Positions 3,803 to 64,000 of a DNA stretch of 64,000 nucleotides are shown here, one piece after another. The position numbers and the translations under genes are program-made. Below the pieces are notes generated by a model. That model was given only the letters and a program-made list of their open reading frames with translations. It did not search any database and was not told where the DNA came from. Every line of letters starts with the position of its first letter. Position 1 is the stretch's first letter. Source of the DNA: a virus (taxonomy: Duplodnaviria; Caudoviricetes); the IMG/VR virus record IMGVR_UViG_3300043391_000675, positions 1-64,000 of that record; one strand, written 5' to 3'.

Positions 3803-3940
3803 TTATCTATTGTACCATTTTTTGTCTGATTATCATGGTATTGCATATGAAAATCTAATAATTGATGAGTAGTTGCACAAAAACATATTGGGCAGTGGGT
3901 GATCCACTGGGATTTGTCCTCCCAATGTTTAGGCATTAAG

Positions 3941-4011
3941 CTCCAGGTGAAGGAATCGGACCTTCATTGTCGGTTTCGGAAACCGCTCTACGACCATTAT
4001 AGGAACCTGAA
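3941..4011 (-). tRNA. tRNA-Arg(CCG)
   Basis: 7-bp acceptor stem TTCAGGT/ACCTGGA, anticodon loop TT-CCG-AA, T-arm GAAGG-TCCGATT-CCTTC (atypical TCC); no encoded CCA. Confidence 0.8.
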
Positions 4012-16907: not shown

Positions 16908-17208
16908 GCTTTACCTTTAGCTGCTTCCAAGTATCTTTAGTTTTATGTACATTCTTTATTTTGTCCACCAATCCAGAAGACAGAAAAACTCCGCCCCAAA
17001 CCCCGTACTCGTCTTGATCAACTCCAGACCTATAGCACATCTTTATAACTGGACACGATAAACAACATTGATCAATTGCATTAGCCATTTGAACATCAGA
17101 CTCATACTTATCAAAGAAGAGATTGGTGTCCATGCCATTGCATGCTGCTAAATCCCACCATCTTATAGAATCTTGGTCTGAATTTAATTTATTTAAAATG
17201 TCTGACAT
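16897..17208 (-). CDS. whiB: WhiB-family Fe-S transcription factor
   Basis: AACNGMDTNLFF...CLSCPVIKMC...GVWGG (4 Cys plus GVWGG turn). Confidence 0.93.
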   Translation of the reverse strand: MSDILNKLNSDQDSIRWWDLAACNGMDTNLFFDKYESDVQMANAIDQCCLSCPVIKMCYRSGVDQDEYGVWGGVFLSSGLVDKIKNVHKTKDTWKQLKVKHGI

Positions 17209-25498: not shown

Positions 25499-25521
25499 AG
25501 TTCCCCCTTTTTATTTAATAG

Positions 25522-25594
25522 TGTCCCCAGATGGTATCGAACCATCGACCCGCAGATTAAAAGTCTGCTGCTCTACCAGCTGAGCTATAGGAAC
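25522..25594 (-). tRNA. tRNA-Lys(TTT)
   Basis: Cloverleaf; anticodon loop CT-TTT-AA; GGTTCGA T-loop. Confidence 0.93.
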
Positions 25595-25595
25595 G

Positions 25596-25668
25596 CTGCC
25601 CCACCTGGCCTCGATCCAGGGACATCCGAATTAACAGTTCGGCGCTCTACCAACTGAGCTATGGGGCA
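25596..25668 (-). tRNA. tRNA-Asn(GTT)
   Basis: Acceptor TGCCCCA/TGGGGCA; loop CT-GTT-AA; atypical T-loop ATCGAGG. Confidence 0.9.
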
Positions 25669-27893: not shown

Positions 27894-27931
27894 TTTTTCT
27901 CCTATTTTATAAGTGATGATATTTCATATCG

Positions 27932-28003
27932 CACCCCTGGCTGGATTCGAACCAGCGGCCAACAGATTAGAAGTCTGTTGCTCTTCCTCTGAGCTACAGA
28001 GGT
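27932..28003 (-). tRNA. tRNA-Arg(TCT)
   Basis: Cloverleaf; loop CT-TCT-AA; GGTTCGAATCC. Confidence 0.93.
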
Positions 28004-28350: not shown

Positions 28351-28362
28351 ATTACCCCCTTG

Positions 28363-28436
28363 TGCAACAAGTAGGACTTGAACCTACGATTACCGAATTA
28401 TGAGTTCGGGGCTTTAACCAACTAAGCTACTGTTGC
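28363..28436 (-). tRNA. tRNA-CAT (elongator Met or lysidine Ile2)
   Basis: Loop CT-CAT-AA; paired 1:72 and no GGG/CCC anticodon stem, so not initiator. Confidence 0.88.
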
Positions 28437-45804: not shown

Positions 45805-48800
45805 TTAGTACCCCCGAAATGTTGGAGGGAAGAACGGTGTTGCAAATGTAGGTGGGAAGAACGGTGGGAAGAACGGTGGGAAGAACGGTGGGAAGAACGG
45901 ACCGCCCTTAAAGCTTGGGAAGAACGGTGGGAAGAATGGGAAGAACGGTGGGAAGAATGGGAAGAACGGTGGGAAGAATGGGAAGAACGGTGGGAAGAAC
46001 GGTGGGAAGAATGGAGATTCAAAGAACGGTGGGAAGAACGGTGGGAAGAACGGTGGGAAGAACGGTGGGAAGAACGGACCGCCCTTAAAGCTTGGGAAGA
46101 ATGGCCCAACTACACATGCCTGAGTTTCTGAAGTTACGCATGGGTTTCCAGAAGGACATGTTCTTGTTCTTGATTGAGAAGAGTTTACACAAGTACTCCA
46201 TGCTGACCAAGCGGTGCAACCAGCTGCTTGTGTTGCATCGCAATTGCAAGGTGTTCCGCATGCTGGATATCCAGATGTGCTGCAGGAAGTTGAATATCCA
46301 GATCCGCTACCACTAATGTTAGAGGCTTCAATTGATTGTGAGCAACCAGCGCAGTTAAAGTTAACACTTGTTGTACAGTACCATGTACTGCATGCTTCAG
46401 TTTCAGATGTTGTACAAACATTTCCTGAAGGACAAGTTCTAGTTCTAGTTCGTGTGCCACCAGAACAAGCGCTCCAGGCAGACCATGCCCCACACTGACT
46501 TGCAACGCAAACACAAGGTGTTCCGCATGCTGGATATCCAGATGTGCTGCAAGCGGTTGAGTAGCCAGATCCGCTGCCGCTTATGTTGCTACTTTCAATT
46601 GATTGTGAACAGCCAGCACAGTTGGAGTTAACGCTTGTTGTACAGTACCATGTACTACAAGTTTCAGTTTCAGATGTTGTACATGGTGATCCTGATGGGC
46701 AAGTTCGTGTTCTAGTTCTTAGTCCTCCAGAACAAGCGCTCCAAAAGCTCCAAGACCCACAAGCGTTGCTTGCAGTGGCATCACAAACGCAAGGCGTCTG
46801 GCATGCTGGATATCCAGATGTGCTGCAAGCGGTTGAGTAGCCAGATCCGCTGCCGCTAATATTACTTCCTTCAATTGAATACCCACAACCATAACAGTTA
46901 GCTGGCGTACTTGTTGTGCAATACCAACACTGTTGTGATTCTGAAGTTGAGCATGGAGATCCAGAAGGGCAGACTCTTGTTCGAGTTCTGTATCCTCCAG
47001 AACAAGCACTCCAAGCAGACCAAGCTCCGCAAGCACTATTCTGTGTCGAATCACAAACGCAAGGAGTAGCACAAGCGTAGTAAGATCCATTTTGATTACA
47101 TGCCGTTGAGTAGCCAGATCCACCACCGCTTATGTTACTGGACTGAATGGTGTAAGAACAGCCAGCACAGTTTGAGTTAAGGCTTGTTGTACAATACCAG
47201 CACTGCTCTGTCTGTGTTGTTACGCAGGGGTTACCAGCAGGGCAAGTTCTAGTTCTTGTTCTTGTATGGCTTGCAGAACAAGCACTCCATTCACCCCACG
47301 CACCGCATGCGCTTTCTGCAGATGCACTGCAAACACAAGGTGTAGCGCATTCGTAGTAAGTTCCAGTTTGGTTGCATGCCGTTGAGTAGCCAGATCCACC
47401 ACCGCTTATGTTACTGGACTGAATGGTGTAAGAACAGCCAGCACAGTTTGAGTTAAGGCTTGTTGTACAGTACCAGCACTGCTCTGTCTGTGTTGTTACG
47501 CAAGGGTTGCCAGCGGGACAAATTCTTGTACGGGTTCTTGTGTGGCTTGCAGAACAAGCACTCCACTCACCCCAAGTACCACATGCGCTTTCTGCAGATG
47601 CACTGCAAACGCAAGGGGTAGCGCAAACTGGATATGCTATTGAACTGCATGCTGTTGAATATCCAGACCCACTACCGCTTATGTTAGTTGATTCTATTGT
47701 TTGGCTACAACCAGCACAATTAAAATTAACGCTTGTTGTACAGTACCAGCAATTTTCAGTTAATACATCGTCACTTTCAACTATAGTACAATCTAACATA
47801 TTTTCAATCTTAGTTCTAGTTTTTGTTCTAGTTCCATTAGAACATTCAGAATATGGTCCGTACTCAGTATATGTAGTAGATACGCAACATGATGGAGTAG
47901 TATAACATGCAATGGAGTAGCCAGATCCAGTTGCACTTACATTTGTTGGTGACTCAAAAGTACTGCAAGATATTGGTGTCGATTGAACATAAGAAACACA
48001 ATACCATGTACCTGTTGTTTCACAAATTGGAGCCGATACTTCATAGTCATAAGAAAATGCAGTTAAATCTATATCATTAATTTTTGAAGTTGTTACAGTT
48101 ACACAGGACGGTTGATCTGATTCTATGTCTGTAACGAATATTGTATTTCCAGTTCTAGAAGCATTTCCATTTGTGCAGCTTAGCTCTATATCAAATGAGC
48201 TGATGTCTGAGTAGTTTAATATTGTAACTTTAAAAGAAGTGGCGGTAGCGTCAAATGCTCTTGATAGCATAGCCTGAATACCCCAATTAAGAACTCTAAT
48301 GCTTTCTGTAACAGTATTACTTTCTTTTAGCGGTATAGATGTTCCGCCTAATGCAGTAACAGATACATTATACAAAGCATTCTCAGTAAGTCCAGTAACT
48401 ACTGCAGATGAATCTGTAGTAGTTACTGGGTATCCAGGTATAGAAATACCTGTTTGATTTCTTTTTATATCTACACGATATTGTGTTGCATTTGTAGAAA
48501 GCCAATCTACAGAAAATGATGTTCTTGTTCTATTAGAAAATGTAATAGTTGGATCTTCAATAACTCCTGGCTGCCAGTCTATAAACGCAAGCTCTTGAGT
48601 TGGACCAATTTCAGAATATCTTACACCAGTAAATTCTCTATAATAATCATCAGCTATGATTGACAGCTCCCACTGATAGCTATCATTAGGGTCTAAACTA
48701 TTTGGCAAATTGATTGTTACTGAAGTGTCAGTGAGCAATACTGGTTCTGGCACATAAAGCTTTTGAACACCTGCACTATCATATAAGCTTATTATCTGTG

Positions 48801-49521
48801 ACCACATATATGTCGGAACCTGAGCGGGTGTTATTGTTGCTGGATCGTATGCCCAAGATAGGGTTACAGATGTCTGAGTTTCATCTGTAATATCAAATGA
48901 TGATATGTTAAACCAGTATCTGGCTGCAATTCCTAGGCCTGGAAAATTAACATCAGCTTCCCCACTACTATTTTCAGCTTTTATTTTGCCTCTAAATTTT
49001 ACTTTATTAAGCACATTTGCTTTTGTTATTAATGGCCTGTTAGATGCGCTCACTGGGACTTGATATAGATAATCTGCATCTGAATAATCATCATATTGTT
49101 TAACTACAGGTGTTATTAAATCTGTCCATGTAGAATATGGAGGATCTGATTTTTGTATATACATAGTAAATTTTGTAGGCTCTTCATTCCATTGGCCTCT
49201 TACTAAATACATTTTGTCCCCATTAAAAGGAGAATCTATTGATTCAAATCCGTCAGAGCTAATAAATGTAAGTGATGGTGGATTTGCTGTTTCAGCATTA
49301 GGCACATTAGTTCCAAATATTTTAAACCAAAGTCCTGACGTTCCTAGTTGCCAAACACTTTTTACTCTTAGCCAGCCATCAATAACCCATGGGTTAGAGC
49401 TTAATCCAGAGTTTATTGTGTCTGAAACAGAAGCTTTTCTCCAGATGCTTCGAATCTTTACCCATCCGTTTATATTATGAGCACCAGTATCGGTTGCGCT
49501 AGTTTTTCTCCAGATGCTCAT
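45805..49521 (-). CDS. Putative tail fibre/adhesin with FN3-like domains, TSP1-like Cys repeats and (PFFP)n tail
   Basis: In the tail block; FN3-like segments (SVTLSW, FSVDW...YRV...YNVSVTA); six full 12-Cys repeats. Confidence 0.8.
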   Translation of the reverse strand: MSIWRKTSATDTGAHNINGWVKIRSIWRKASVSDTINSGLSSNPWVIDGWLRVKSVWQLGTSGLWFKIFGTNVPNAETANPPSLTFISSDGFESIDSPFNGDKMYLVRGQWNEEPTKFTMYIQKSDPPYSTWTDLITPVVKQYDDYSDADYLYQVPVSASNRPLITKANVLNKVKFRGKIKAENSSGEADVNFPGLGIAARYWFNISSFDITDETQTSVTLSWAYDPATITPAQVPTYMWSQIISLYDSAGVQKLYVPEPVLLTDTSVTINLPNSLDPNDSYQWELSIIADDYYREFTGVRYSEIGPTQELAFIDWQPGVIEDPTITFSNRTRTSFSVDWLSTNATQYRVDIKRNQTGISIPGYPVTTTDSSAVVTGLTENALYNVSVTALGGTSIPLKESNTVTESIRVLNWGIQAMLSRAFDATATSFKVTILNYSDISSFDIELSCTNGNASRTGNTIFVTDIESDQPSCVTVTTSKINDIDLTAFSYDYEVSAPICETTGTWYCVSYVQSTPISCSTFESPTNVSATGSGYSIACYTTPSCCVSTTYTEYGPYSECSNGTRTKTRTKIENMLDCTIVESDDVLTENCWYCTTSVNFNCAGCSQTIESTNISGSGSGYSTACSSIAYPVCATPCVCSASAESACGTWGEWSACSASHTRTRTRICPAGNPCVTTQTEQCWYCTTSLNSNCAGCSYTIQSSNISGGGSGYSTACNQTGTYYECATPCVCSASAESACGAWGEWSACSASHTRTRTRTCPAGNPCVTTQTEQCWYCTTSLNSNCAGCSYTIQSSNISGGGSGYSTACNQNGSYYACATPCVCDSTQNSACGAWSAWSACSGGYRTRTRVCPSGSPCSTSESQQCWYCTTSTPANCYGCGYSIEGSNISGSGSGYSTACSTSGYPACQTPCVCDATASNACGSWSFWSACSGGLRTRTRTCPSGSPCTTSETETCSTWYCTTSVNSNCAGCSQSIESSNISGSGSGYSTACSTSGYPACGTPCVCVASQCGAWSAWSACSGGTRTRTRTCPSGNVCTTSETEACSTWYCTTSVNFNCAGCSQSIEASNISGSGSGYSTSCSTSGYPACGTPCNCDATQAAGCTAWSAWSTCVNSSQSRTRTCPSGNPCVTSETQACVVGPFFPSFKGGPFFPPFFPPFFPPFFPPFFESPFFPPFFPPFFPFFPPFFPFFPPFFPFFPPFFPSFKGGPFFPPFFPPFFPPFFPPTFATPFFPPTFRGY
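45808..46104. repeat. In-frame tandem repeat of 12-bp (ggtgggaagaac) and 9-bp units encoding PFFP/PFF
   Basis: Directly visible; includes a duplicated PSFKGGPFFP segment. Confidence 0.95.
46114..48006 (-). repeat. About 270-bp tandem coding repeats (six full plus one degenerate)
   Basis: Each unit begins WYCTTS and contains SGxGSGYSTxC and WxxWSxC...RTRxCP. Confidence 0.92.
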
Positions 49522-52500
49522 TATGCTTTCCTACTTAATATTATGTCTCCAACAGAAAACGCTTTAGTTCCTTGATCTCCATCATTAAATTGTGATCTAG
49601 AAGATGCTCCGTCTGGATAATTGTTTCCAGCATAAAAGAAAGCTCTACCCGTAGTCAAAAATCCATCTTGATTTTGTACAACCGTTGTATCTCCAGCTGT
49701 TCCATTGTTGTCGCTTTGAACAGCTAATGCAATTTTAAAAGCAGCATAAGCTTTTTTATCTGGATTTATTGAAAAAATTCCATTTTCATAAACAATAGAT
49801 CTGTTTCCTAGGCTAAAGTTTCCAGCAGATTTTGTTACCCCACCTATAGTTGTGCTTTTGCCAAGAAGGTAATCACTTGAAAAACTAGCTCCGCCCAAAA
49901 ATACGTTAGATGCAACTAAATCTGTTTTAACTTTAAACTCAGATCCATTGTATGTTAAGTTGCCATTAGCTAGTCTAAAATTACCAGATGAGGATATATA
50001 ATCAATATTGCCTGGGTTTCCAGTTCCGCTTCCTGTCTCTGGGTTCCATGTGCCTGGATCGGGTGAATCTGCGCCAGTATTTGCTGCGTACCAATTTGTA
50101 GGATTCCAAAAGAAAACATTTGATCCAACAATATTTCCTCCAGCAATTGTTCCCTGTAAACCATCTAGTTTAACTTTTACTGTGCTACTTCCATCGATAA
50201 ATGATTCTAAAAACTTTCCGTTTATTTTCCATCCACTAGTTATCTTTTTGCTTGTTGCATCATACAATCCAAAGTATCCTGACCTGGCCTCTATAGATCC
50301 AGATAGTGTTGCTTCCTTTGCAATTAAAGATCCACCATATGTTACTGAGAAATTAGGACCAGGAGTTCCTGCCCTATTTCCGCCTGCCCAAATAGCAATA
50401 TCTGATAAAGTTGTTGTATTATAAAAGCCAATATTTTCTCCGTTATTAATAGAAGTATCGGTAATGGCCCAACCACCAATACTTCCCTTCCTTGCAATAA
50501 TTCCATTAACTGGATCTAGCTGAGCATAAATTCCATTTGTTGTATTTGTAACCTGTATGCCAGAACCTACTGTGGATCCAAGCACTGTAGCAAGTTGCCC
50601 AATTTCTACCTTGCCACCAGATGTTCCAGGAACGGTAACCCTCAGCTGTCCAGGGAACACAGTGTCAACACCATTGACTTTAATTGTACCGCCAATATCT
50701 ATTGAGCCAAGTATTCCAGATGATGCTTTTATTACTCCACTGAGTTCTGCATTAACCGCTTTAACCAATCCATCAGTATCAACTTCAAAATTAGAACCAA
50801 CCTTAATTGTTCCACCAGTAATATGAAGATTTTTTGCTTTTACATATCCTGCACTAGTTACTGAGAATTTAGCATCTTCATTTGCATTTACTGAATACCC
50901 ACCAGCTACTCCTCCGCCTGCCCAAAATGCGTAGGTGCCGCTTGGAGATAAGCCAGCATACGTTCCAGTTGTTGCATTTAAAGTATTTTCAATTTTGCCG
51001 CTAGATATAACCCAGTTAGCAATTTTTGCTTTTTGAGTTATAAATGTTGCTGTAACACCGTTGTCTTCACCAATTATTTGCGTTGTTGGATTTGTTCCAT
51101 TTAAATCATTTGAGTCGTATAAAAATAAACCACGCTTATTTATAAGCATTCTTGCACCAGATAAAACTGGATTGTCATTAGCATCTAAAGTGCCAGCAAA
51201 AATAGATCCATCTGTTTTTATCTTGACAGGATTTTCAATTAAAGAAAGAGATGCGACATCTATTATAGTAACCGAAACTGCAGCAGAAATAGTAGCAAGA
51301 CCCTCTTCACATGTCCACTGGCCTTTAACCCAAACTATATTGCCAGCATTTGCTTCATCGTAAACAATCACTGGGCTTGAGTTAGAAGACGCAACAAGAG
51401 AGTAAGTTCCGTTTTCTGTCGAACTTTGGTAAACCTTTATTCCAGTAGCACTGGCATTTAAATTAGAAGATACGCTATACCCATTAGACAATGCTGTTAC
51501 AGATATAGTGGTTGTAATTCCAGAAAGAGGATTTGGTTTTACTGCTGTTGCTAATCCAGATATTGCAACTTGCGTTGTATTTTCATTTCTATATATATCA
51601 AGGTCCGTAACATATCCGCTTGAAAAAGAGCTTGGGCTATCTCCGAATGCGTCTATAATTTTTGATCTAGTTATCTTGACTGAAGTTGTTGCAGATGCTG
51701 CTGCAGAAACTGGATACTCAAAGGATCTAGTTTTGGTTCCAGATGTAAGGTGTACTATAACATAAGATGGTAAATTTAGTGCTGGCATCGTGAAAGAAAC
51801 ATCTAAGTCTCTAACATTCCATACAGCTGATGGATTAATTACTGGGTCTGGAGGTAGGTCATCAAATACAATTTGATCATAAGCTTTTCCTTCAACAATT
51901 GGGGAATCAATAGACTGGCACCCAGAATCAGACAAGTGATTTAATTTAACATATACTGTATTCAATGTATATAATGTTATTGATGCTGGACCAAAGCCTG
52001 TGTACCTAAGAACCCAATTATATGGAGATGCTGTTTCTGAAACATAAACTCTAGTTTCTCTGTATGTTCCAATTTTAGTTGCAGGATCTTGCCAAGAAAC
52101 AATTATGCTGCTATCTGCACTTACAACTGTAGGGGCAAGCGTCGATGCTACACATATAGGGTCTACATAAACAGGTATAGTAAATGGACAATCGTCAGAT
52201 GATCCGTCTCCATATATACTTGTTATCTTTCCTGTTATTGTTGTTTGAAACACTCCGCCAAAGTTTGCCATGTTATTTGCTTGGCTAAGTGTATAGCTGT
52301 ATTGGCTTACTCCAGCTTTTGTAGCAAATGGGACGAAGATTGGCTCTTCTCCTGCTGCAGTTAAAGTTAATTGGAAAAGTCTTATTCTTTCATCACGAGT
52401 TACATTGTCTTCTAAAAATGGCTTTTCCCAAGAAACTTTTAAATCTGCAGTGCTTTCATCCCATACCGCAACAACATTAATTGGGCAAGTTCTTCTTGGG

Positions 52501-52679
52501 CCAGGTGTTCTAAAATTAAATCTGTCAGAGAACTCGCTTGTACCTAAAGTTTTATCGCTAAACACCCAGGCTGCTTGAAGAGCATAATCGGTACTACAAT
52601 CTAAATCTGGAATTACAACATCCCAGTAATCACCATCTTGTTTTTGTGTGATACCTAGATCTGGATATTGTTCTGACAT
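49521..52679 (-). CDS. Large tail/baseplate-associated structural protein
   Basis: 1052 aa; beta-rich FN3-like N-terminal half, Gly-rich IGGW/IWAGG spike-like repeats. Confidence 0.7.
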   Translation of the reverse strand: MSEQYPDLGITQKQDGDYWDVVIPDLDCSTDYALQAAWVFSDKTLGTSEFSDRFNFRTPGPRRTCPINVVAVWDESTADLKVSWEKPFLEDNVTRDERIRLFQLTLTAAGEEPIFVPFATKAGVSQYSYTLSQANNMANFGGVFQTTITGKITSIYGDGSSDDCPFTIPVYVDPICVASTLAPTVVSADSSIIVSWQDPATKIGTYRETRVYVSETASPYNWVLRYTGFGPASITLYTLNTVYVKLNHLSDSGCQSIDSPIVEGKAYDQIVFDDLPPDPVINPSAVWNVRDLDVSFTMPALNLPSYVIVHLTSGTKTRSFEYPVSAAASATTSVKITRSKIIDAFGDSPSSFSSGYVTDLDIYRNENTTQVAISGLATAVKPNPLSGITTTISVTALSNGYSVSSNLNASATGIKVYQSSTENGTYSLVASSNSSPVIVYDEANAGNIVWVKGQWTCEEGLATISAAVSVTIIDVASLSLIENPVKIKTDGSIFAGTLDANDNPVLSGARMLINKRGLFLYDSNDLNGTNPTTQIIGEDNGVTATFITQKAKIANWVISSGKIENTLNATTGTYAGLSPSGTYAFWAGGGVAGGYSVNANEDAKFSVTSAGYVKAKNLHITGGTIKVGSNFEVDTDGLVKAVNAELSGVIKASSGILGSIDIGGTIKVNGVDTVFPGQLRVTVPGTSGGKVEIGQLATVLGSTVGSGIQVTNTTNGIYAQLDPVNGIIARKGSIGGWAITDTSINNGENIGFYNTTTLSDIAIWAGGNRAGTPGPNFSVTYGGSLIAKEATLSGSIEARSGYFGLYDATSKKITSGWKINGKFLESFIDGSSTVKVKLDGLQGTIAGGNIVGSNVFFWNPTNWYAANTGADSPDPGTWNPETGSGTGNPGNIDYISSSGNFRLANGNLTYNGSEFKVKTDLVASNVFLGGASFSSDYLLGKSTTIGGVTKSAGNFSLGNRSIVYENGIFSINPDKKAYAAFKIALAVQSDNNGTAGDTTVVQNQDGFLTTGRAFFYAGNNYPDGASSRSQFNDGDQGTKAFSVGDIILSRKA

Positions 52680-57172: not shown

Positions 57173-57762
57173 ACCTGCTCCAGGGATATATTAACACTCC
57201 AGAAGGGCTGTAAGCCTCTTTTAACGACAGTAAAATCACATGATGTAAACATTACAGTGTATGTGTAATCATCGGCTAAAGCCCCGCCTGACTCCTCTAT
57301 TAACTCTGTAGAAAAGACTGTAGGGTTTAGTTTAATACGAAATGCTCCACGGCCTGCAGCGCTTTCGTAAAAGGCTTTTAAGTCTTCTGCGCCCCAGCCA
57401 CCATCGACTGTTTCGTTTCTAAAAGACGGAACCATTTCCCAAGATGCGGATACATTTAATTTATCTGCAATAAAATATTTTCTTAATGTTCCATTTGACA
57501 TTCTTTGGCCAGATTCAATTCTTTCAACATTTAATGAAAGAGGTGCTCTATTATGCTCAGTAACTCTTCTAAATTTTGTTGCAGTTGTTTTATTACTATA
57601 CGCCAGCCCATTTCTATTTGCAGTTGTAGCGTCATATGTATTTCCTGGTGCAGTAATAGTTGTACCTTTATAATCAAATTGATTATTAGCTGGATCAATT
57701 GCAAATGGGTCTAATGCTTCTATATATAGGATTGATCCTTTTGATAAGTTTTGGAAACTCAT
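57169..57762 (-). CDS. Distal tail (Dit-like) protein
   Basis: First gene after the TMP; RMSNGTLRKY...SWEMVPS...WSVNISLEQV. Confidence 0.65.
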   Translation of the reverse strand: MSFQNLSKGSILYIEALDPFAIDPANNQFDYKGTTITAPGNTYDATTANRNGLAYSNKTTATKFRRVTEHNRAPLSLNVERIESGQRMSNGTLRKYFIADKLNVSASWEMVPSFRNETVDGGWGAEDLKAFYESAAGRGAFRIKLNPTVFSTELIEESGGALADDYTYTVMFTSCDFTVVKRGLQPFWSVNISLEQV

Positions 57763-60700
57763 GGTCTACCAACCTTTCTATTTACTCCAGCAGCCATTTC
57801 TCTAAGTCTCATTTCTTTATGAATTGAAGCGGCAACATCATCTGCTGTAAGATTGGTTCCACTTAAAGATACATTTATATTATACAATGAGCTTGAAGAG
57901 GAAGCAAGACCGCCTTCGTTAAATTTTACCCTGCCACCGCTTGACATCTTTGGAACATTATAACTAACCATTCCGCCAGAAGCCATTTTATTAATATTGT
58001 CTAACATAGGTACGCCAGCTGCTTGGACTGCTTTTGCACTAATTACGTATTCACCATTTGAAAGCATAGCTGGAATTGAATCAGATGTTGCACTGCCAGG
58101 ACCTGATATATATCCTCCATAAGCTTTTTTAATTCTCTTTCCCATTGTTTTTGTTTTTTCGTCCCATGGACGGATATCAACACCATTGTTATCACTTACA
58201 TAGGTTTGTCCATTATATTTAAACTTGTACCATGTCTGATCGTTTATGCTAACCATTGTTCCTTGGCCTTTAGAATAAGCTGATTTGAATCCATCAAATA
58301 CAGTTTTGCCAGTTCCTGTTTGAGCTTTATCTGGGCCGAACTCTACAGTTCCTTTAGGAGGTGTGCCTGGGGCTTTTCCAAGTGCTACCAAAAGATCGGC
58401 ACGAAGCTTAGCCAAGGTTACTCCTCCAGTAATTGAAGTTGCTAGTTTTTCTACGGCAGCTAAGTCTTTTTGGAATACATCAAGTGCTCCTCCGCTAATT
58501 CCAGTTGAAAATACTGGCTTTCCTTTTGCATCAAATCCAGTTGGAGATCCAGTTGGCGCTGTTACTGCAATAGGCTTTCCAGTCTTTGGATCGAAGTACC
58601 CACCGAATGCATCCCGAACTGTTTTTGCAGATAGTCCAGATCCAGATCCAGATTTTTGAATCTCTTTTACTAATGCTATTAACTCTGCAGTAATTTTTGC
58701 TTGCTCTGCGGCCTTTTCTTTTTCAGGAAGTAGTCTTGAGCTTATTGCTCTAGTGCTTAAATCATTGTATCTTGTTTGGAATCCAGTAATGGTTGTGTTT
58801 ATTTCACCTGCAAGGGCTGCATTGTCCTGTTGTCCTTGAAGCGCTAAAGCTTTCTTATCTGATTTATTTTGTATAGACTCAGCATCTTTTTCCAAAGGAG
58901 CCTTTGCTTTGTTAGCTGCATCTTCAATTGCTTTTGAAGCAAGCTCGCTCTGTCTATTTGAAGTTAGCTGATCAATATCTATTCTTGCTCTTGCAGCTGT
59001 TGCCATATCTCCACGAGCAACTGCATCAGCATATTCTATTTGAAGTTTTTGCAACTCTAATGCATAGTTTGATGCATCTTGAGTTGCTCTTAAAGATTCT
59101 AGCTTTTTGTTTTTTTCTTCTTCAATAAGTTTAATCTTTTTAGCAATTGCTTTTAGCTCTTCTTGTGCACTTCTTTGTGAAGCTGCAGCTGCTCTTTGAG
59201 AAGCAGCAGAATTTGCATTAATTGTCTTTTGCAATTTAGCCAAGGCTGCGCCTGTTTGTCCATATGTTGTAGCGCTGTCAGCAGCTTTAGTTAAATCCGA
59301 AATTCCAGTTCCTATTGCAGATGTAAATCCAGCTAATTTATTTGCTAATGTAGAATCAATCTTGCTTAAATCAATATTAATTCCAGATGTAAACAGCTTC
59401 CACTTGGCGAGTATGCCTTTAATTGTATCTGAAGAGTTTGTTATTGATGCAAGTAACGGCTGAGTCTTTTGAAGATTTTCATATGCATTTCTTCCAATTT
59501 CTTCATTCATCTTTGGATTATTTGCTTCTGATTTTGACATAACTAATTGATAAGCTTCATACTCATCAATTACATTACCCAACTCATCTTTAGTTCCCAC
59601 CAAAGCCGACGTTGCGTTTGAGAAAACATTTATTAATCCTTCAAATCCATTTCCAACTTCTTTGCCCCAGTCTGCAGTTCCTGCGCCACTGTTTAAAGTA
59701 TTGACTAAGTTTCCAACTGCAAACTCTGCAGCAGATGACTTGTCTACAATTGATCCAAACTGTACATCGGCTAAAACTTTGTAAGCCTGTGAAGCTTTTT
59801 TACTATTTGCTAAAGCTCCATATATTTTTTTGTTTGCTTCTTCAATGCTCATTCCTCCAGCAACCATTTGTGCCTTTTGATTATTAAGCAATCTTTGCGT
59901 TTCTTCAGTACTGCCCGATCTATTTATAGACTCAATTAAATCCTTGAGTCCCTTACCTTCTTCTTTAGCTTTCTTCATGTCTTCTATAGATTGAGGTATA
60001 CCAGGAATACCAATTGAATTGTTTGCAGATCCTTTAGCTGCTGCGCTCACTAGCTTTTGCTTATCTAAGTAGCCCTGCATTGTTTCTTTAAGATTAAAGT
60101 ATTTTATACCAGCTTGCTCTGCAGCTTTTGCTGTCATAGAAAGACCCATTGAAGCGTCTTGCTTTGCATCTTGATAGTCTTTATATACTTTAAATGCTAA
60201 TCCAGCGGCTGTGATCGCTGCACCAACAAGCCCAAATGCTTTTGCAAATCTTAACACTTGTGCGCCCATTGCGGCTAGCTTTGCTGTTGCTCCAGTGACT
60301 CCTGTAATTCCAGCTTTAGCTGAGGCTGCTCCAGTTTTTATTGAACCAAACATTCTAGCATAAGGAATTGGCATTGAAAGAAGAGAAGATCCTATCATCA
60401 ACCCCATACCTGCTTGCATTCCAGACATGCTGCCAACTTTTTCCTGGTTCATTAAAGCCATTCCGCCCATTGACCCAGCCATACCAATTCCCATTTGAGC
60501 ACCCATGCCCATGCCGCCAGCTCTTTGTGGAACTCTTATGCCTTCTTTTTTTGCTTGTGCCGCAGTCATAGAGTTTCCGTTTACAAGGTATTCGGTTTTT
60601 CTCATTCCCAGAGTTCCTACTTTTCTAGTCTGAACTCCATCTCCTGCATCTCTATACTGACCAATCATTCCTGGCCCAAATAGTCCTTGTGCTGGTGCTT

Positions 60701-63700
60701 GTCCTACAGGATAATTCCTTGCGGCAAATGCGTTTTGCTCTCTAATAATTGCATTCTGTGCTCTATTGGCAAATTTTGTAATTGAGCTTTGAGCACTTTT
60801 TCCAAAATTTACAATCATTTCAGAAGATTTCTTATAACCATTTCCAACTTTATTAGCTGCTGCAAGCAGTTCAAGATTTAATCTTATAGATCCTTTTATT
60901 ACAGAAGATGATACAGACGAGAATGCTGCTGATAGATATTGAGCTTTCATTGCTGCCGAATTTTTAAATGGGTCCATCATGTTGTTAACCATTACTTGTC
61001 CAGGATTATAGAAGCTTGTTGTTCCAGTTCTTACCGCCTGTCTTCCTAGTCCGCTTGTTAATGCTTGCTGGCCAGTAATTTGTCTAGATGAAGCTCTAGA
61101 TCTTTCTGCTGCAGCATCTCTTTCTGCCTGCTCACGTCGTTTAGCTTCCCACGCAGCTCTAGCTGCTGGGTTTCCTGGTCTCTGTGCACCTTTCTTTGCT
61201 CCATAAGCGCTTCTGCCTTTTTTAACTGGCCCACCACCAACTGGTCCTCCATCATTAAGGTATGTTGGGTTAGAGTGTACGGAATGATATTTACTCCAAT
61301 CAACCTCTATTCCATCATCCAACCTTTTGAGCATTGCTTGATAAGGTGGTCTAAGATCTACAGGTAGATCATTTATTATTTTTACCAATTTTGGACGAGC
61401 ATCTTCTAGAACCTTTTTCATCTTTCGACCATATTTTTTAGGGCTCATTTTAGCAATTATTGGGGCAGTATCACGTGCAAAATCTTTTCTTGCTCCACCT
61501 TTAACAGCAAGAAGATTGATCATTGCTTGTTTTTCCATAGAGTTCATTTCATCAGCTTTTGCAAGTGATGTGTTGCCAGATGCTGCTTTAAACACTCCAG
61601 CATTTCCAACATCTGGATTAAAGTTTCCATATACGTTTGATCTAGATAGATCTTTATTATTCATAAGAAGAGAGTTAGCAAGCTGTCTAATTATTGTGTC
61701 TTCTTCCCATGGCACATTAGTGTTTGCAAAGCGTGGGTCATAATCTGATTCTAGTGCAAGCAGCTTGCTTTTCTTTGATGGGTCTAATGGGTTGACAACT
61801 GTTCTAGCTGTTTGAACTGGAGATGATATTCCAAAAAGGTCTCTTGAAATTTGTGTGCCAATTGGCTCATGAACTGCAGTTAATTCATTAGGAACTCCTT
61901 TAACAAAAACCTTTTTCTTACCAACCTTATATAATCCAGATACACCAGGTACAGGATAACTCATTCCTGTACTTGCAGAAATTTGATGTCCATATTCAGT
62001 TACTGGTGTATCAGCAAACTTTCCTAGCGAGCTTCTTGAGCTTAATTCTCTTGCTTTTGCTAAAATCTTTAGTTGTTTTTCTGCAGGTAATAGTTTTAAT
62101 AAAGGAGAAACGTTTCCATAATTTGATCTGCCTTTAGATATAGATCCTCCTGGAATCATTCCACCCATATTAAATGATCCAGCAAGTGCACCTAGTTTTG
62201 GTCTTGCATAAGAATTTCCCATTGCGAATAATCTTCCGCCAAGTGTTGTGATCATTTTAGAGTTAAAGCCCGATGCAGATTTCATTCTCGTCAAGGTAAG
62301 TTGTCTAATAATTTCCTTCATTGTTGTGGGGCCCGTAATTCCCAACTTAGCTTTAAGTTTTTTAATTCCTGCTATAAAGTTGCTCTTTGCTTCATCCTGA
62401 AATGGTGAAACTTCATCTAGAAAAACACCATCTGTACTTTGCTGTAACCAGTTGCCCATCTCGTTAAATGATTTCGCAAGCCCAGTAGATTGACCAACAA
62501 AATTATTTGATCTGACTCCAGTAACATCAGCAAATTTGGCTGCTTCTGCTCTTGACATTCCTTCTTCAACAAGCAGGGCTTGCAACTCTCCTGGCTTAAA
62601 TATTGAAGCAGATCTTTTTGCAGTCATAGTGTGAGATTTAGAAACTGGATCGGGTCCATCTGATACTCCGCCTAAAATTCCAAAAACTTTTTTTGCTTGA
62701 GCTGTAGTTAAAACTCCCTCTTTTATTAAATCGTCAATTACAGATTTCATTGCTCCTGTATATGTCTGAGGAGCTATAGCTTTCATACGAGCTGCTTTTG
62801 CACTTTGATCGTATTTATTTTTACTTGAATATTCATCTAGAATTAAGTTTGCACCTGGGAACTCTTTGCTTAATCTAATAAGTTGAGCTGTTCTTGCCTT
62901 TACAAACTCTTCTGTTTTTCTTGTCCCATTTTTATTTGCTGCTTTTTTAGCATGCTCTGTTGCTGAATCATAATCTGCAGAAACTCTCTTTGTGGCATCT
63001 TTAATATCCATTCCAGTAAGCTGTGATAATATGGCAGCATCAGAAGCGACTGTTGCTGCTCTAATTACCTTTGGATAATCTTTAGAATTAACTAATCTTG
63101 CCCATATGGATAGATTGCTTTCTCTTCCATACCCATATGTACCTCTCATTATCTGACCACCAAAACTGTATCCATTATTAGCCGCATCGACTGCTGCATA
63201 AAGCTCGGGCATTCTTTGAATTTTTGGACCAAACACTGTTTCCTGTGGAGTTAATGCTGCTGTAATCTTTCCGCCGTTTTCATATGTAGCAGAAGCCATA
63301 GCAACAAGTGGTGCGTTTTCTGGATCTAAAGATGCACCCTGGTTTAATACATATCCCCCAACAGGTACACTTCCAAGCCTATCGTCGTAGTTAATTGAAG
63401 ACGGACCAGAAACTGTTGTTCTACTTGGCCCGAACTCTTCAATTCCTCCACCATCTGCAAACTTAGGAATTCTTGTTGCCTGTATACTGTAAGGTGCTCC
63501 GAATGTTCTTACTCCACGAACTCTTCCAAACTCTTCCATTACAGCAGCGTTTGCTTTCTTTTTGTAAAGATCTCTTAAAGTAAATTGTCCGTTGGCATCT
63601 ACAACTGGTTGGTTCATCATAGGAGCTTTTGTTAAATCTATAGATCTTCCTTTACTAGCTGCGTACATGCTGACAGCGGACCCCATGTCTGCTTCTATCT

Positions 63701-64000
63701 GTGCATTAAGTGCAAGTATTCTTGCCTTTGCTTGCTCAACAGTTATCTCTGCGCTTCTCATTTGCTGTACTATTAATGCAGATTGCTCAGCTGCGCTATT
63801 TGCAAACCTTTGTGTTATAGGAAGTATGTCATCGAAGGTGTCTAGTAATTCTCTGCTTACTGTTCCGCCCATTGCAATTGTTTTCTTAAGCATTGCAACT
63901 TCTTGTTCTGTTTGCATACCAAGCGTGGCCATTAATGCGTGGAATTTTGCTGCTTCCCCTGAAACAATTCCTGTAGATATATTCTTTACGCTTGTTAGTC
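57759..64000 (-). CDS. Tape measure protein, 5'-truncated by the window, with inserted domains
   Basis: Frame is open to the window edge (over 2080 aa); Ala/Gly/Lys-rich helices, hydrophobic segments, C-terminal GPGSATSDSIPAMLSNGEYV. Confidence 0.88.
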   Translation of the reverse strand, partial: LTSVKNISTGIVSGEAAKFHALMATLGMQTEQEVAMLKKTIAMGGTVSRELLDTFDDILPITQRFANSAAEQSALIVQQMRSAEITVEQAKARILALNAQIEADMGSAVSMYAASKGRSIDLTKAPMMNQPVVDANGQFTLRDLYKKKANAAVMEEFGRVRGVRTFGAPYSIQATRIPKFADGGGIEEFGPSRTTVSGPSSINYDDRLGSVPVGGYVLNQGASLDPENAPLVAMASATYENGGKITAALTPQETVFGPKIQRMPELYAAVDAANNGYSFGGQIMRGTYGYGRESNLSIWARLVNSKDYPKVIRAATVASDAAILSQLTGMDIKDATKRVSADYDSATEHAKKAANKNGTRKTEEFVKARTAQLIRLSKEFPGANLILDEYSSKNKYDQSAKAARMKAIAPQTYTGAMKSVIDDLIKEGVLTTAQAKKVFGILGGVSDGPDPVSKSHTMTAKRSASIFKPGELQALLVEEGMSRAEAAKFADVTGVRSNNFVGQSTGLAKSFNEMGNWLQQSTDGVFLDEVSPFQDEAKSNFIAGIKKLKAKLGITGPTTMKEIIRQLTLTRMKSASGFNSKMITTLGGRLFAMGNSYARPKLGALAGSFNMGGMIPGGSISKGRSNYGNVSPLLKLLPAEKQLKILAKARELSSRSSLGKFADTPVTEYGHQISASTGMSYPVPGVSGLYKVGKKKVFVKGVPNELTAVHEPIGTQISRDLFGISSPVQTARTVVNPLDPSKKSKLLALESDYDPRFANTNVPWEEDTIIRQLANSLLMNNKDLSRSNVYGNFNPDVGNAGVFKAASGNTSLAKADEMNSMEKQAMINLLAVKGGARKDFARDTAPIIAKMSPKKYGRKMKKVLEDARPKLVKIINDLPVDLRPPYQAMLKRLDDGIEVDWSKYHSVHSNPTYLNDGGPVGGGPVKKGRSAYGAKKGAQRPGNPAARAAWEAKRREQAERDAAAERSRASSRQITGQQALTSGLGRQAVRTGTTSFYNPGQVMVNNMMDPFKNSAAMKAQYLSAAFSSVSSSVIKGSIRLNLELLAAANKVGNGYKKSSEMIVNFGKSAQSSITKFANRAQNAIIREQNAFAARNYPVGQAPAQGLFGPGMIGQYRDAGDGVQTRKVGTLGMRKTEYLVNGNSMTAAQAKKEGIRVPQRAGGMGMGAQMGIGMAGSMGGMALMNQEKVGSMSGMQAGMGLMIGSSLLSMPIPYARMFGSIKTGAASAKAGITGVTGATAKLAAMGAQVLRFAKAFGLVGAAITAAGLAFKVYKDYQDAKQDASMGLSMTAKAAEQAGIKYFNLKETMQGYLDKQKLVSAAAKGSANNSIGIPGIPQSIEDMKKAKEEGKGLKDLIESINRSGSTEETQRLLNNQKAQMVAGGMSIEEANKKIYGALANSKKASQAYKVLADVQFGSIVDKSSAAEFAVGNLVNTLNSGAGTADWGKEVGNGFEGLINVFSNATSALVGTKDELGNVIDEYEAYQLVMSKSEANNPKMNEEIGRNAYENLQKTQPLLASITNSSDTIKGILAKWKLFTSGINIDLSKIDSTLANKLAGFTSAIGTGISDLTKAADSATTYGQTGAALAKLQKTINANSAASQRAAAASQRSAQEELKAIAKKIKLIEEEKNKKLESLRATQDASNYALELQKLQIEYADAVARGDMATAARARIDIDQLTSNRQSELASKAIEDAANKAKAPLEKDAESIQNKSDKKALALQGQQDNAALAGEINTTITGFQTRYNDLSTRAISSRLLPEKEKAAEQAKITAELIALVKEIQKSGSGSGLSAKTVRDAFGGYFDPKTGKPIAVTAPTGSPTGFDAKGKPVFSTGISGGALDVFQKDLAAVEKLATSITGGVTLAKLRADLLVALGKAPGTPPKGTVEFGPDKAQTGTGKTVFDGFKSAYSKGQGTMVSINDQTWYKFKYNGQTYVSDNNGVDIRPWDEKTKTMGKRIKKAYGGYISGPGSATSDSIPAMLSNGEYVISAKAVQAAGVPMLDNINKMASGGMVSYNVPKMSSGGRVKFNEGGLASSSSSLYNINVSLSGTNLTADDVAASIHKEMRLREMAAGVNRKVGRP

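Follow-up and report, generated by a model that had tools for sequence, protein, structure and literature searches.

A kinase-like domain of no described sequence family within the giant tape measure protein of a probable actinophage

We describe a kinase-like domain within the tape measure protein (TMP) of a tailed phage that is known from the IMG/VR virus record IMGVR_UViG_3300043391_000675. The stretch of DNA analysed, called the window below, is the first 64 kb (64,000 nucleotides) of this 90,005-bp record, which is about 83% complete. The domain has a predicted kinase-like fold, its catalytic residues are conserved throughout its relatives, it is restricted to TMPs, and its place in their architecture is fixed. 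It has the fold and the motifs of a kinase and yet belongs to no described sequence family. The reading that we favour, and to which we would give an even chance, is that of a catalytically competent atypical kinase-like domain in the N-terminal half of a giant TP901-type TMP of an actinophage-like siphovirus; the domain would be delivered at ejection and would act on a host target, by phosphorylation, before the genes of the phage are transcribed.

Results

The motifs were read from the translation of window positions 61143-62132 on the minus strand. The six motifs that the first-pass annotation of this DNA had quoted as kinase-like are all there, in the order it gave, between 61605 and 61943: VSGLY (61929-61943), VFVK (61899-61910), AVHEP (61863-61877), LFGISSP (61818-61838), SLLMNNKDLSRSN (61635-61673) and PDVG (61605-61616). 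The limits of the domain are taken from the homologue-aligned residues 36-288 of the query segment P0002, and the core defined in this way (Table 1) is nearly identical to the extent of 61270-62010 proposed at first. For the analysis of conservation the domain was cut from 247 proteins, which left 71 sequences of less than 70% mutual identity. Lys1419, Glu1430, Asn1507 and Asp1515 are invariant in these non-redundant homologues (71/71), and Asp1502 is kept in 70 of the 71; the conservation of the K/E/D/N/D residues, on which the earlier proposal had staked itself, is therefore borne out. G1397 and G1407 (G27 and G37 of the structural model), P1446 and Q1491 are also 100% conserved, and S1399 (S29) reaches 99%. 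The consensus of the catalytic loop is R-G-D-K-D-L-x-x-x-N versus M-N-N-K-D-L-S-R-S-N in the window; the His of the DRH/HRD motifs is replaced, as had been noticed. Given the conservation across 71 sequences of such divergence, the motif pattern is not a product of chance.

AlphaFold2, run with a 50-sequence alignment of the domain, produced a model with pLDDT 89.3 and pTM 0.88. The N-lobe of the model presents, in this order, a Gly-rich loop, the Lys strand (44-51), the Glu helix (54-71), and two strands with a hinge; helix 115-127 then leads directly to D-x4-N, to the second Asp and to a helical C-lobe (helices 170-258). The model predicts the bilobal protein-kinase-like fold of Pfam clan CL0016, with an N-lobe sheet and alphaC and with a helical C-lobe. 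The beta3 Lys and the alphaC Glu of this clan find their counterparts in K1419 and E1430, both by conservation and by the elements of the model; the Asp-x4-Asn and the metal-binding Asp that follows it find theirs in D1502, N1507 and D1515.

Foldseek against the PDB gives matches that are almost all kinases, with CtkA first and probabilities of 0.99-1.0. The top 50 VIA-align matches are kinases without exception (50/50), and the leaders are CtkA, HipA/HipT, PI3/PI4-kinases and CotH. A second structural comparison scored CotH at 11.3, CtkA at 10.7, PI4KIIbeta at 9.8, MavQ at 9.4, LepB at 9.3 and HipT at 9.1. The best matches in BFVD are PI3/4-kinase-like domains, some of them within large proteins that bear the annotation portal, ADP-ribosyltransferase (ART) or head morphogenesis (MuF type). 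ESM Atlas pointed to PI3_PI4_kinase, HipA_2 and actin-fragmin kinase, all below 0.9, which we use as leads only. AlphaFold and Foldseek had been named in the first-pass annotation as the test of its kinase-like fold; the predicted fold is kinase-like, kinases match throughout, and the atypical subgroup that it had suggested (HipA, CtkA and the PI3/4-kinases) does lead the structural matches, together with CotH.

At the level of sequence families the domain stands apart. The segment has no match in Pfam (E<=1), in PHROGs or among PDB chains, which were searched by phmmer and by profile, and Pfam run on 50 aligned homologues gives scattered chance matches only, with no kinase family among them. 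Pkinase (PF00069) matches neither the segment, nor the 50 homologues, nor the whole record at E<=1, and the eukaryotic-type motifs are not seen: (R)GDKDL replaces HRD, and APE is absent. The HipA-like families PF07804 (HipA_C) and PF20613 (HipA_2) have no HMM match at E<=1 in the 50 homologues. The PI3/PI4-kinase family PF00454 has no match at E<=1 either, and the loop DKDLxxxN has no His and so differs from DRHxxN. CotH (PF08757) is found neither in the record (E<=10) nor in the 50 homologues. The profile-profile comparison covered CotH; its sole local hhalign alignment pairs the helix and the Asp before the catalytic loop with CotH ..NGD. Kinase-PolyVal (PF18762) has no Pfam match, and our model keeps helices 170-258 after the metal-binding Asp. 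As no sequence model from Pfam, PHROGs or the PDB detects the domain, we regard it as an undescribed sequence family.

The absence of family membership bears on whether the domain performs phosphotransfer in practice. It could instead work as a nucleotide-binding switch, catalyse a different reaction on the kinase fold (AMPylation, like SelO, or glutamylation, like SidJ), or chiefly fill a structural role in the TMP, as a spacer or a plug. Kinase folds with intact-looking motifs can catalyse other reactions, as is generally known from other proteins, and the unusually short distance from the Asn to the metal-binding Asp would fit such a function. We nevertheless consider it very unlikely: the five catalytic positions and the Gly-rich loop are strictly kept down to about 27% identity, as expected of an active ATP-using enzyme, and a spacer would hardly call for such conservation.

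The open reading frame (ORF) that holds the domain is open at the window end, where 57759-63932 (2057 aa) is seen of it; extended beyond the window, it encodes a full TMP of 2798 aa (record 57759-66155). The PhageMin_Tail domain (PF10145, aa 239-438, E 2e-26) and the first hydrophobic segment are encoded outside the window, at record 64001-66155. Twelve PHROG tape-measure families match the protein, the best with E 1e-118. On the 3' side of the gene there are a 197-aa ORF and several tail proteins, including a minor tail protein of 1089 aa, and on the 5' side two small ORFs and an Ig-domain protein. By HMM matches, by position in the tail block and by extreme length, the protein is confirmed as a true TP901-type TMP, and the earlier view that the insert interrupts a TMP holds. 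Because the ORF is cut by the window end, the position of the domain within the protein has to be corrected from residues ~640-890 to aa ~1377-1629. If the whole 2798-aa TMP measures length, the predicted tail is about 400 nm at 1.5 Å per residue.

Table 1. Features of the TMP gene and of the kinase-like domain (window positions; residue numbers are those of the full TMP unless referred to the model)
Feature	Position	Strand	Remarks
TMP gene, part within the window	57759..64000	(-)	ORF extends to record 66155; tail genes on both sides; PF10145 and PHROG TMP matches
Kinase-like domain, conserved core	61269..62027	(-)	aa 1377-1629; homologues align here; AlphaFold2 model; kinase-fold matches only
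Gly-rich loop (G1397, S1399 ... G1407), presumed phosphate-binding	61935..61967	(-)	before the Lys strand; between model strands 21-24 and 37-41
Lys1419 (VFVK), equivalent of the ATP-binding beta3 Lys	61899..61901	(-)	71/71; model strand 44-51
Glu1430 (AVHE), equivalent of the alphaC Glu	61866..61868	(-)	71/71; model helix 54-71
Catalytic loop D1502-L-S-R-S-N1507, D-x4-N spacing of HRDLKxxN	61635..61652	(-)	straight after model helix 115-127
PDVG with Asp1515, equivalent of the DFG metal-binding Asp	61605..61616	(-)	D 71/71; G147 of the model 94%
Gly/Met-rich glycine-zipper block and second hydrophobic segment	60186..60584	(-)	aa ~1858-1990; hydropathy segment 1970-1988
Upstream Gly-rich border peptide GSFNMGGMIPGGSISKGRSNYG	62115..62180	(-)	motif position; enriched in relatives
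Downstream Gly-rich border peptide GGPVGGGPVKKGRSAYG	61200..61250	(-)	in 96/117 relatives
Polymorphic 340-aa module directly upstream of the kinase-like domain	62121..63158	(-)	aa 1000-1345

The order of modules is constant in 206 long relatives: PhageMin_Tail, a hydrophobic transmembrane-like segment (~537-566), the kinase-like domain, and, after about 250 aa, a glycine-zipper/hydrophobic block. The domain starts at aa 700-800 in 56 of these proteins and at aa 1300-1400 in 108. The zipper block of the window phage contains 6 GxxxG per 60 aa versus 0.54 expected; in homologues the median maximum is 4 per 60 aa, found about 260 aa past the kinase-like domain. It can be added that the Gly/Met-rich block resembles the glycine zippers of other TMPs and of Tde1, an effector of the type VI secretion system (T6SS). 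The CHAP, LysM, OmpA-like and lysozyme domains of relatives are located at aa 2500-3800, and no wall-acting domain is found in the TMP of the window phage. In four TMPs of 3445-4576 aa (P0017, P0106, P0121 and P0102) a CHAP, LysM, OmpA-like or phage-lysozyme domain occupies the C-terminal third.

Gly-rich peptides stand at both borders of the kinase-like domain, GGMIPGG..KGRSNYG upstream and GG..KKGRSAYG downstream. Within the subclade the upstream border contains GGx[IVL]PG in 105/117 proteins and G[RK]xx[YF]G in 57/117, where the background frequency is 0.02-0.03 per 100 aa. At the DNA level the borders share a weak 21-nt direct repeat of 76% identity. These peptides may serve as hinges, may be sites of processing, or may mark the joints of recombination events. 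For the window genome we considered and rejected the recent insertion of a cassette flanked by long repeats, since the only repeat is this one, which reflects the KGRSxYG peptide.

The 340-aa module directly upstream is confidently modelled and has no detectable known fold. It occurs in at least two deeply diverged forms (20-29% identical where the whole module aligns), which assort independently of the flanks: between P0007 and the window phage the kinase-like domain is 96% identical and the region further upstream 90%, versus 24% for the module. A complex prediction for the domain and this module scored 0.00; it was run without controls and weighs neither way. The stretch preceding the module (63159-63910 on the minus strand, full aa ~760-1010) contains repeated GG-containing peptides and has no family match; its conservation among relatives exceeds that of the kinase-like domain (67-100% identity versus 52-96%).

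The HMMER search, which was exhaustive over 1.84 billion representatives, found 158 clusters (50% identity) at E<=1e-3, 116 of them with E<=1e-30, and the matched proteins are nearly all 2000-4576 aa long. By a word-indexed search 203 clusters (90% identity) were obtained, the named members of which are TP901-family TMPs, save a few that are listed as hypothetical or as LysM repeat protein. A relative of the domain is encoded at 255 IMG/VR loci. The short matches comprise two small proteins on contigs of 1-5 kb, a 956-bp contig fragment, and an ORF that comes right after a 1780-aa ORF with PF10145, i.e., a split TMP. These candidates for a free-standing version were rejected as contig fragments or a split TMP; therefore, no stand-alone form was found among those sampled. 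The scan of genome contigs gave a single match, an 85-kb contig in a metagenome-assembled genome labelled Bifidobacterium, which was judged too weak to use as a clue to the host. Cultured phages proved to have no such domain when 50,697 records (INPHARED) were searched by tblastn and megablast, and a full-text literature search found no published description of a kinase in a TMP.

The restriction to a structural protein would also suit a kinase that acts in the producer cell. As long as the TMP is in the cytoplasm together with its chaperones, such a kinase would phosphorylate the TMP itself or other tail proteins and so regulate solubility, the assembly of the tail or the later ejection, much as CotH polyphosphorylates structural proteins of the spore coat. 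ATP is certainly available there, and the activity needs no cycle of unfolding and refolding. Yet long tails are assembled by related TMPs and by cultured relatives that have no such domain, and inspection of the TMP, by eye only, showed no Ser-rich repeats of the CotB/CotG kind that could be a substrate; we think this explanation unlikely.

The window contains a WhiB-family gene (16987-17160, minus strand; PF02467, E 3e-13), and WhiB serves as a marker for recognising actinophages (PMC10914622). The nearest cultured phages are Streptomyces siphoviruses of 125-133 kb, to which the DnaE polymerase is 57% identical and the N-terminus of the TMP 32%. Judging from whiB and from these Streptomyces phages, the phage is probably an actinophage. 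Its G+C content is 37%; a low-GC freshwater actinobacterium as the host is a reasonable guess, though only a guess. Phages of 'Ca. Nanopelagicales' have by now been isolated (PMC10202952). The genes of the window are all on one strand and include a DnaB-like helicase, a DnaE-type polymerase and a terminase. Neither FHA nor PP2C nor Pkinase families were found in the 90-kb record, so that no phage-encoded phospho-signalling partner is seen in the part of the genome that the record covers.

Two further observations concern the rest of the window. Five tRNA genes (Arg-CCG, Lys-TTT, Asn-GTT, Arg-TCT and Met-CAT) are located at 3940-4011, 25521-25668, 27931-28003 and 28362-28436 on the minus strand. 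Beyond the tail genes there are two very large ORFs on the minus strand, 45805-49521 (1238 aa) and 49521-52679 (1052 aa), which have no PHROG match and may encode receptor-binding or fibre proteins.

Discussion

From the conserved residues, the predicted fold and the architecture we infer an enzymatic activity, the refolding and the compartment in which it would take place, a substrate, and a benefit to the phage (host takeover or counter-defence). TMPs fill the tail tube, leave first on infection and help to form a trans-envelope channel (PMC12617516, PMC6116005), and some of them carry wall hydrolases (PMC6116005). The glycine zipper is common to TMPs and to Tde1, and it is needed for the translocation of the effector into target cells (PMC10240207). 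We presume the following course of events. During storage of the TMP inside the tail tube, its kinase-like domain would necessarily not be compactly folded, judging from the tube dimensions of other siphophages. On infection the TMP would exit the tail C-terminus first, which we assume as the usual direction; the C-terminal wall-degrading domains seen in relatives would act on peptidoglycan, and the glycine-zipper and hydrophobic block would insert into the cytoplasmic membrane. The kinase-like domain, being N-terminal of the zipper block, would follow just ahead of the DNA, refold at or inside the cytoplasmic face, and phosphorylate a host target with host ATP before any phage gene expression. 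If the C-terminus exits first, the order of modules (hydrolases C-terminal, then the zipper, then the kinase) matches the order of the barriers, and for this reason a kinase at the cytoplasmic face is favoured.

A protein target seems likelier to us than a lipid because protein kinases make up the majority of the nearest structures. The alternative is a lipid or small-molecule kinase at the cytoplasmic membrane, which might act on phosphatidylinositol or a lipid-linked wall precursor and would aid channel formation, DNA entry or local envelope remodelling. The nearest named family in the language-model search is PI3_PI4_kinase (0.88, a lead only), the domain lies between two membrane-type segments of the TMP, and the host is probably an actinobacterium by whiB and the Streptomyces phages; actinobacteria possess phosphatidylinositol. 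However, protein kinases (CotH, CtkA, HipA/HipT, Fam20C, actin-fragmin kinase and ATM) are at least as close in structure, there is neither a PF00454 match nor a DRH motif, and no lipid-binding element was identified. We hold a lipid substrate to be quite unlikely.

Several points weigh against delivery of an active kinase as we propose it. Related cultured Streptomyces phages have no such domain, and it is therefore dispensable for tail function. No kinase-family sequence model detects it, whether in the segment or in the 50 homologues (Pfam, E<=1), and hhalign of the family profile against a 10-sequence actinobacterial CotH profile gives a probability of 0.1%. The geometry of the five catalytic residues is deduced only from the order of secondary-structure elements in the predicted model. 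Beside the catalytic Asp the window has LMNNKDL, which departs from LRGDKDL of the family, and the spacing from the Asn to the metal-binding Asp is 8 residues, shorter than in classical kinases. Three or six folded copies of 28 kDa should not fit the lumen of the tail tube, and unfolding followed by refolding must therefore be assumed. Finally, we know of no phage for which any part of a TMP has been established to reach the cytoplasm.

The comparison with known systems shows where the domain differs. CotH, an atypical Ser/Thr kinase (Bacillus cereus, PDB 5jd9/5jda, PF08757), has no detectable sequence relationship to it; in spore formers CotH is a protein in its own right, whereas here the domain is part of a phage TMP. 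The HipA-type kinases (CtkA 3akk/3akl of Helicobacter pylori; HipA 3tpb and 4pu3; HipT 7ab3 and 8ezs; PF07804, PF20613) give no HMM match in 50 members of the family; unlike them, the TMP domain has no antitoxin partner, no toxin-antitoxin context and no HipA N-terminal domain, and it is embedded in a virion protein. The type II phosphatidylinositol 4-kinases PI4KIIalpha/beta (4pla/4wtv), together with the lipid kinases among bacterial effectors, MavQ (7m7a) of Legionella and LepB (4jw1), are represented by PF00454 and DRH, which the TMP domain lacks.

The closest concept is that of polyvalent proteins, which are delivered with the virion or by conjugation and carry kinase domains thought to act on the host at entry (Iyer, Burroughs, Anand, de Souza and Aravind 2017, PMC5512222); TMPs are not mentioned in that paper. 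The common element is a kinase within a large multidomain virion protein. The polyvalent-protein kinases (PF18762) have no C-terminal lobe and reside in head-packaged MuF-type proteins, whereas the TMP domain keeps a helical C-lobe and resides in the tail. The concept of a virion-delivered kinase is thus already known; that the domain sits in a TMP and keeps its C-lobe is new, as is its sequence family. Globular enzyme modules that are used at infection have likewise been described in TMPs: the Rpf-like motif of TM4, the muralytic region of Pb2 of T5 and the muramidase of phiIPLA35 (PMC6116005). All the enzymes known there act on peptidoglycan outside the membrane and do without ATP, whereas a kinase depends on it and would have to work either on the cytoplasmic side or in the producer cell.

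The favoured reading can be carried further, to a TMP that is an effector-delivery polyprotein. The kinase-like domain and the polymorphic module would then be one injected unit, in which the module sets the specificity for the target or the host strain, and a host protein would be phosphorylated before transcription in freshwater actinobacteria, for takeover or for the disarming of defence. We put this forward as a possibility, and a doubtful one. If it is true, a cytoplasm-directed enzyme would be known in a TMP for the first time.

TMPs are regarded as rulers and channel formers, and to our knowledge their only known enzymatic inserts cut peptidoglycan. If the domain is active, a part of the TMP would reach ATP at the cytoplasmic face, and siphophages could send a signalling enzyme into the host in advance of the DNA. 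This would bear directly on the final location of the TMP during ejection, and it would add a new pre-transcriptional route of host manipulation beside T4 Alt, N4 vRNAP and the polyvalent proteins. Since neither Pfam nor PHROGs describes the family, it could provide an annotation for many TMPs from metagenomes. Probable hosts are the abundant actinobacteria of lakes; in cultured actinobacteria, Ser/Thr phosphorylation controls growth and division.

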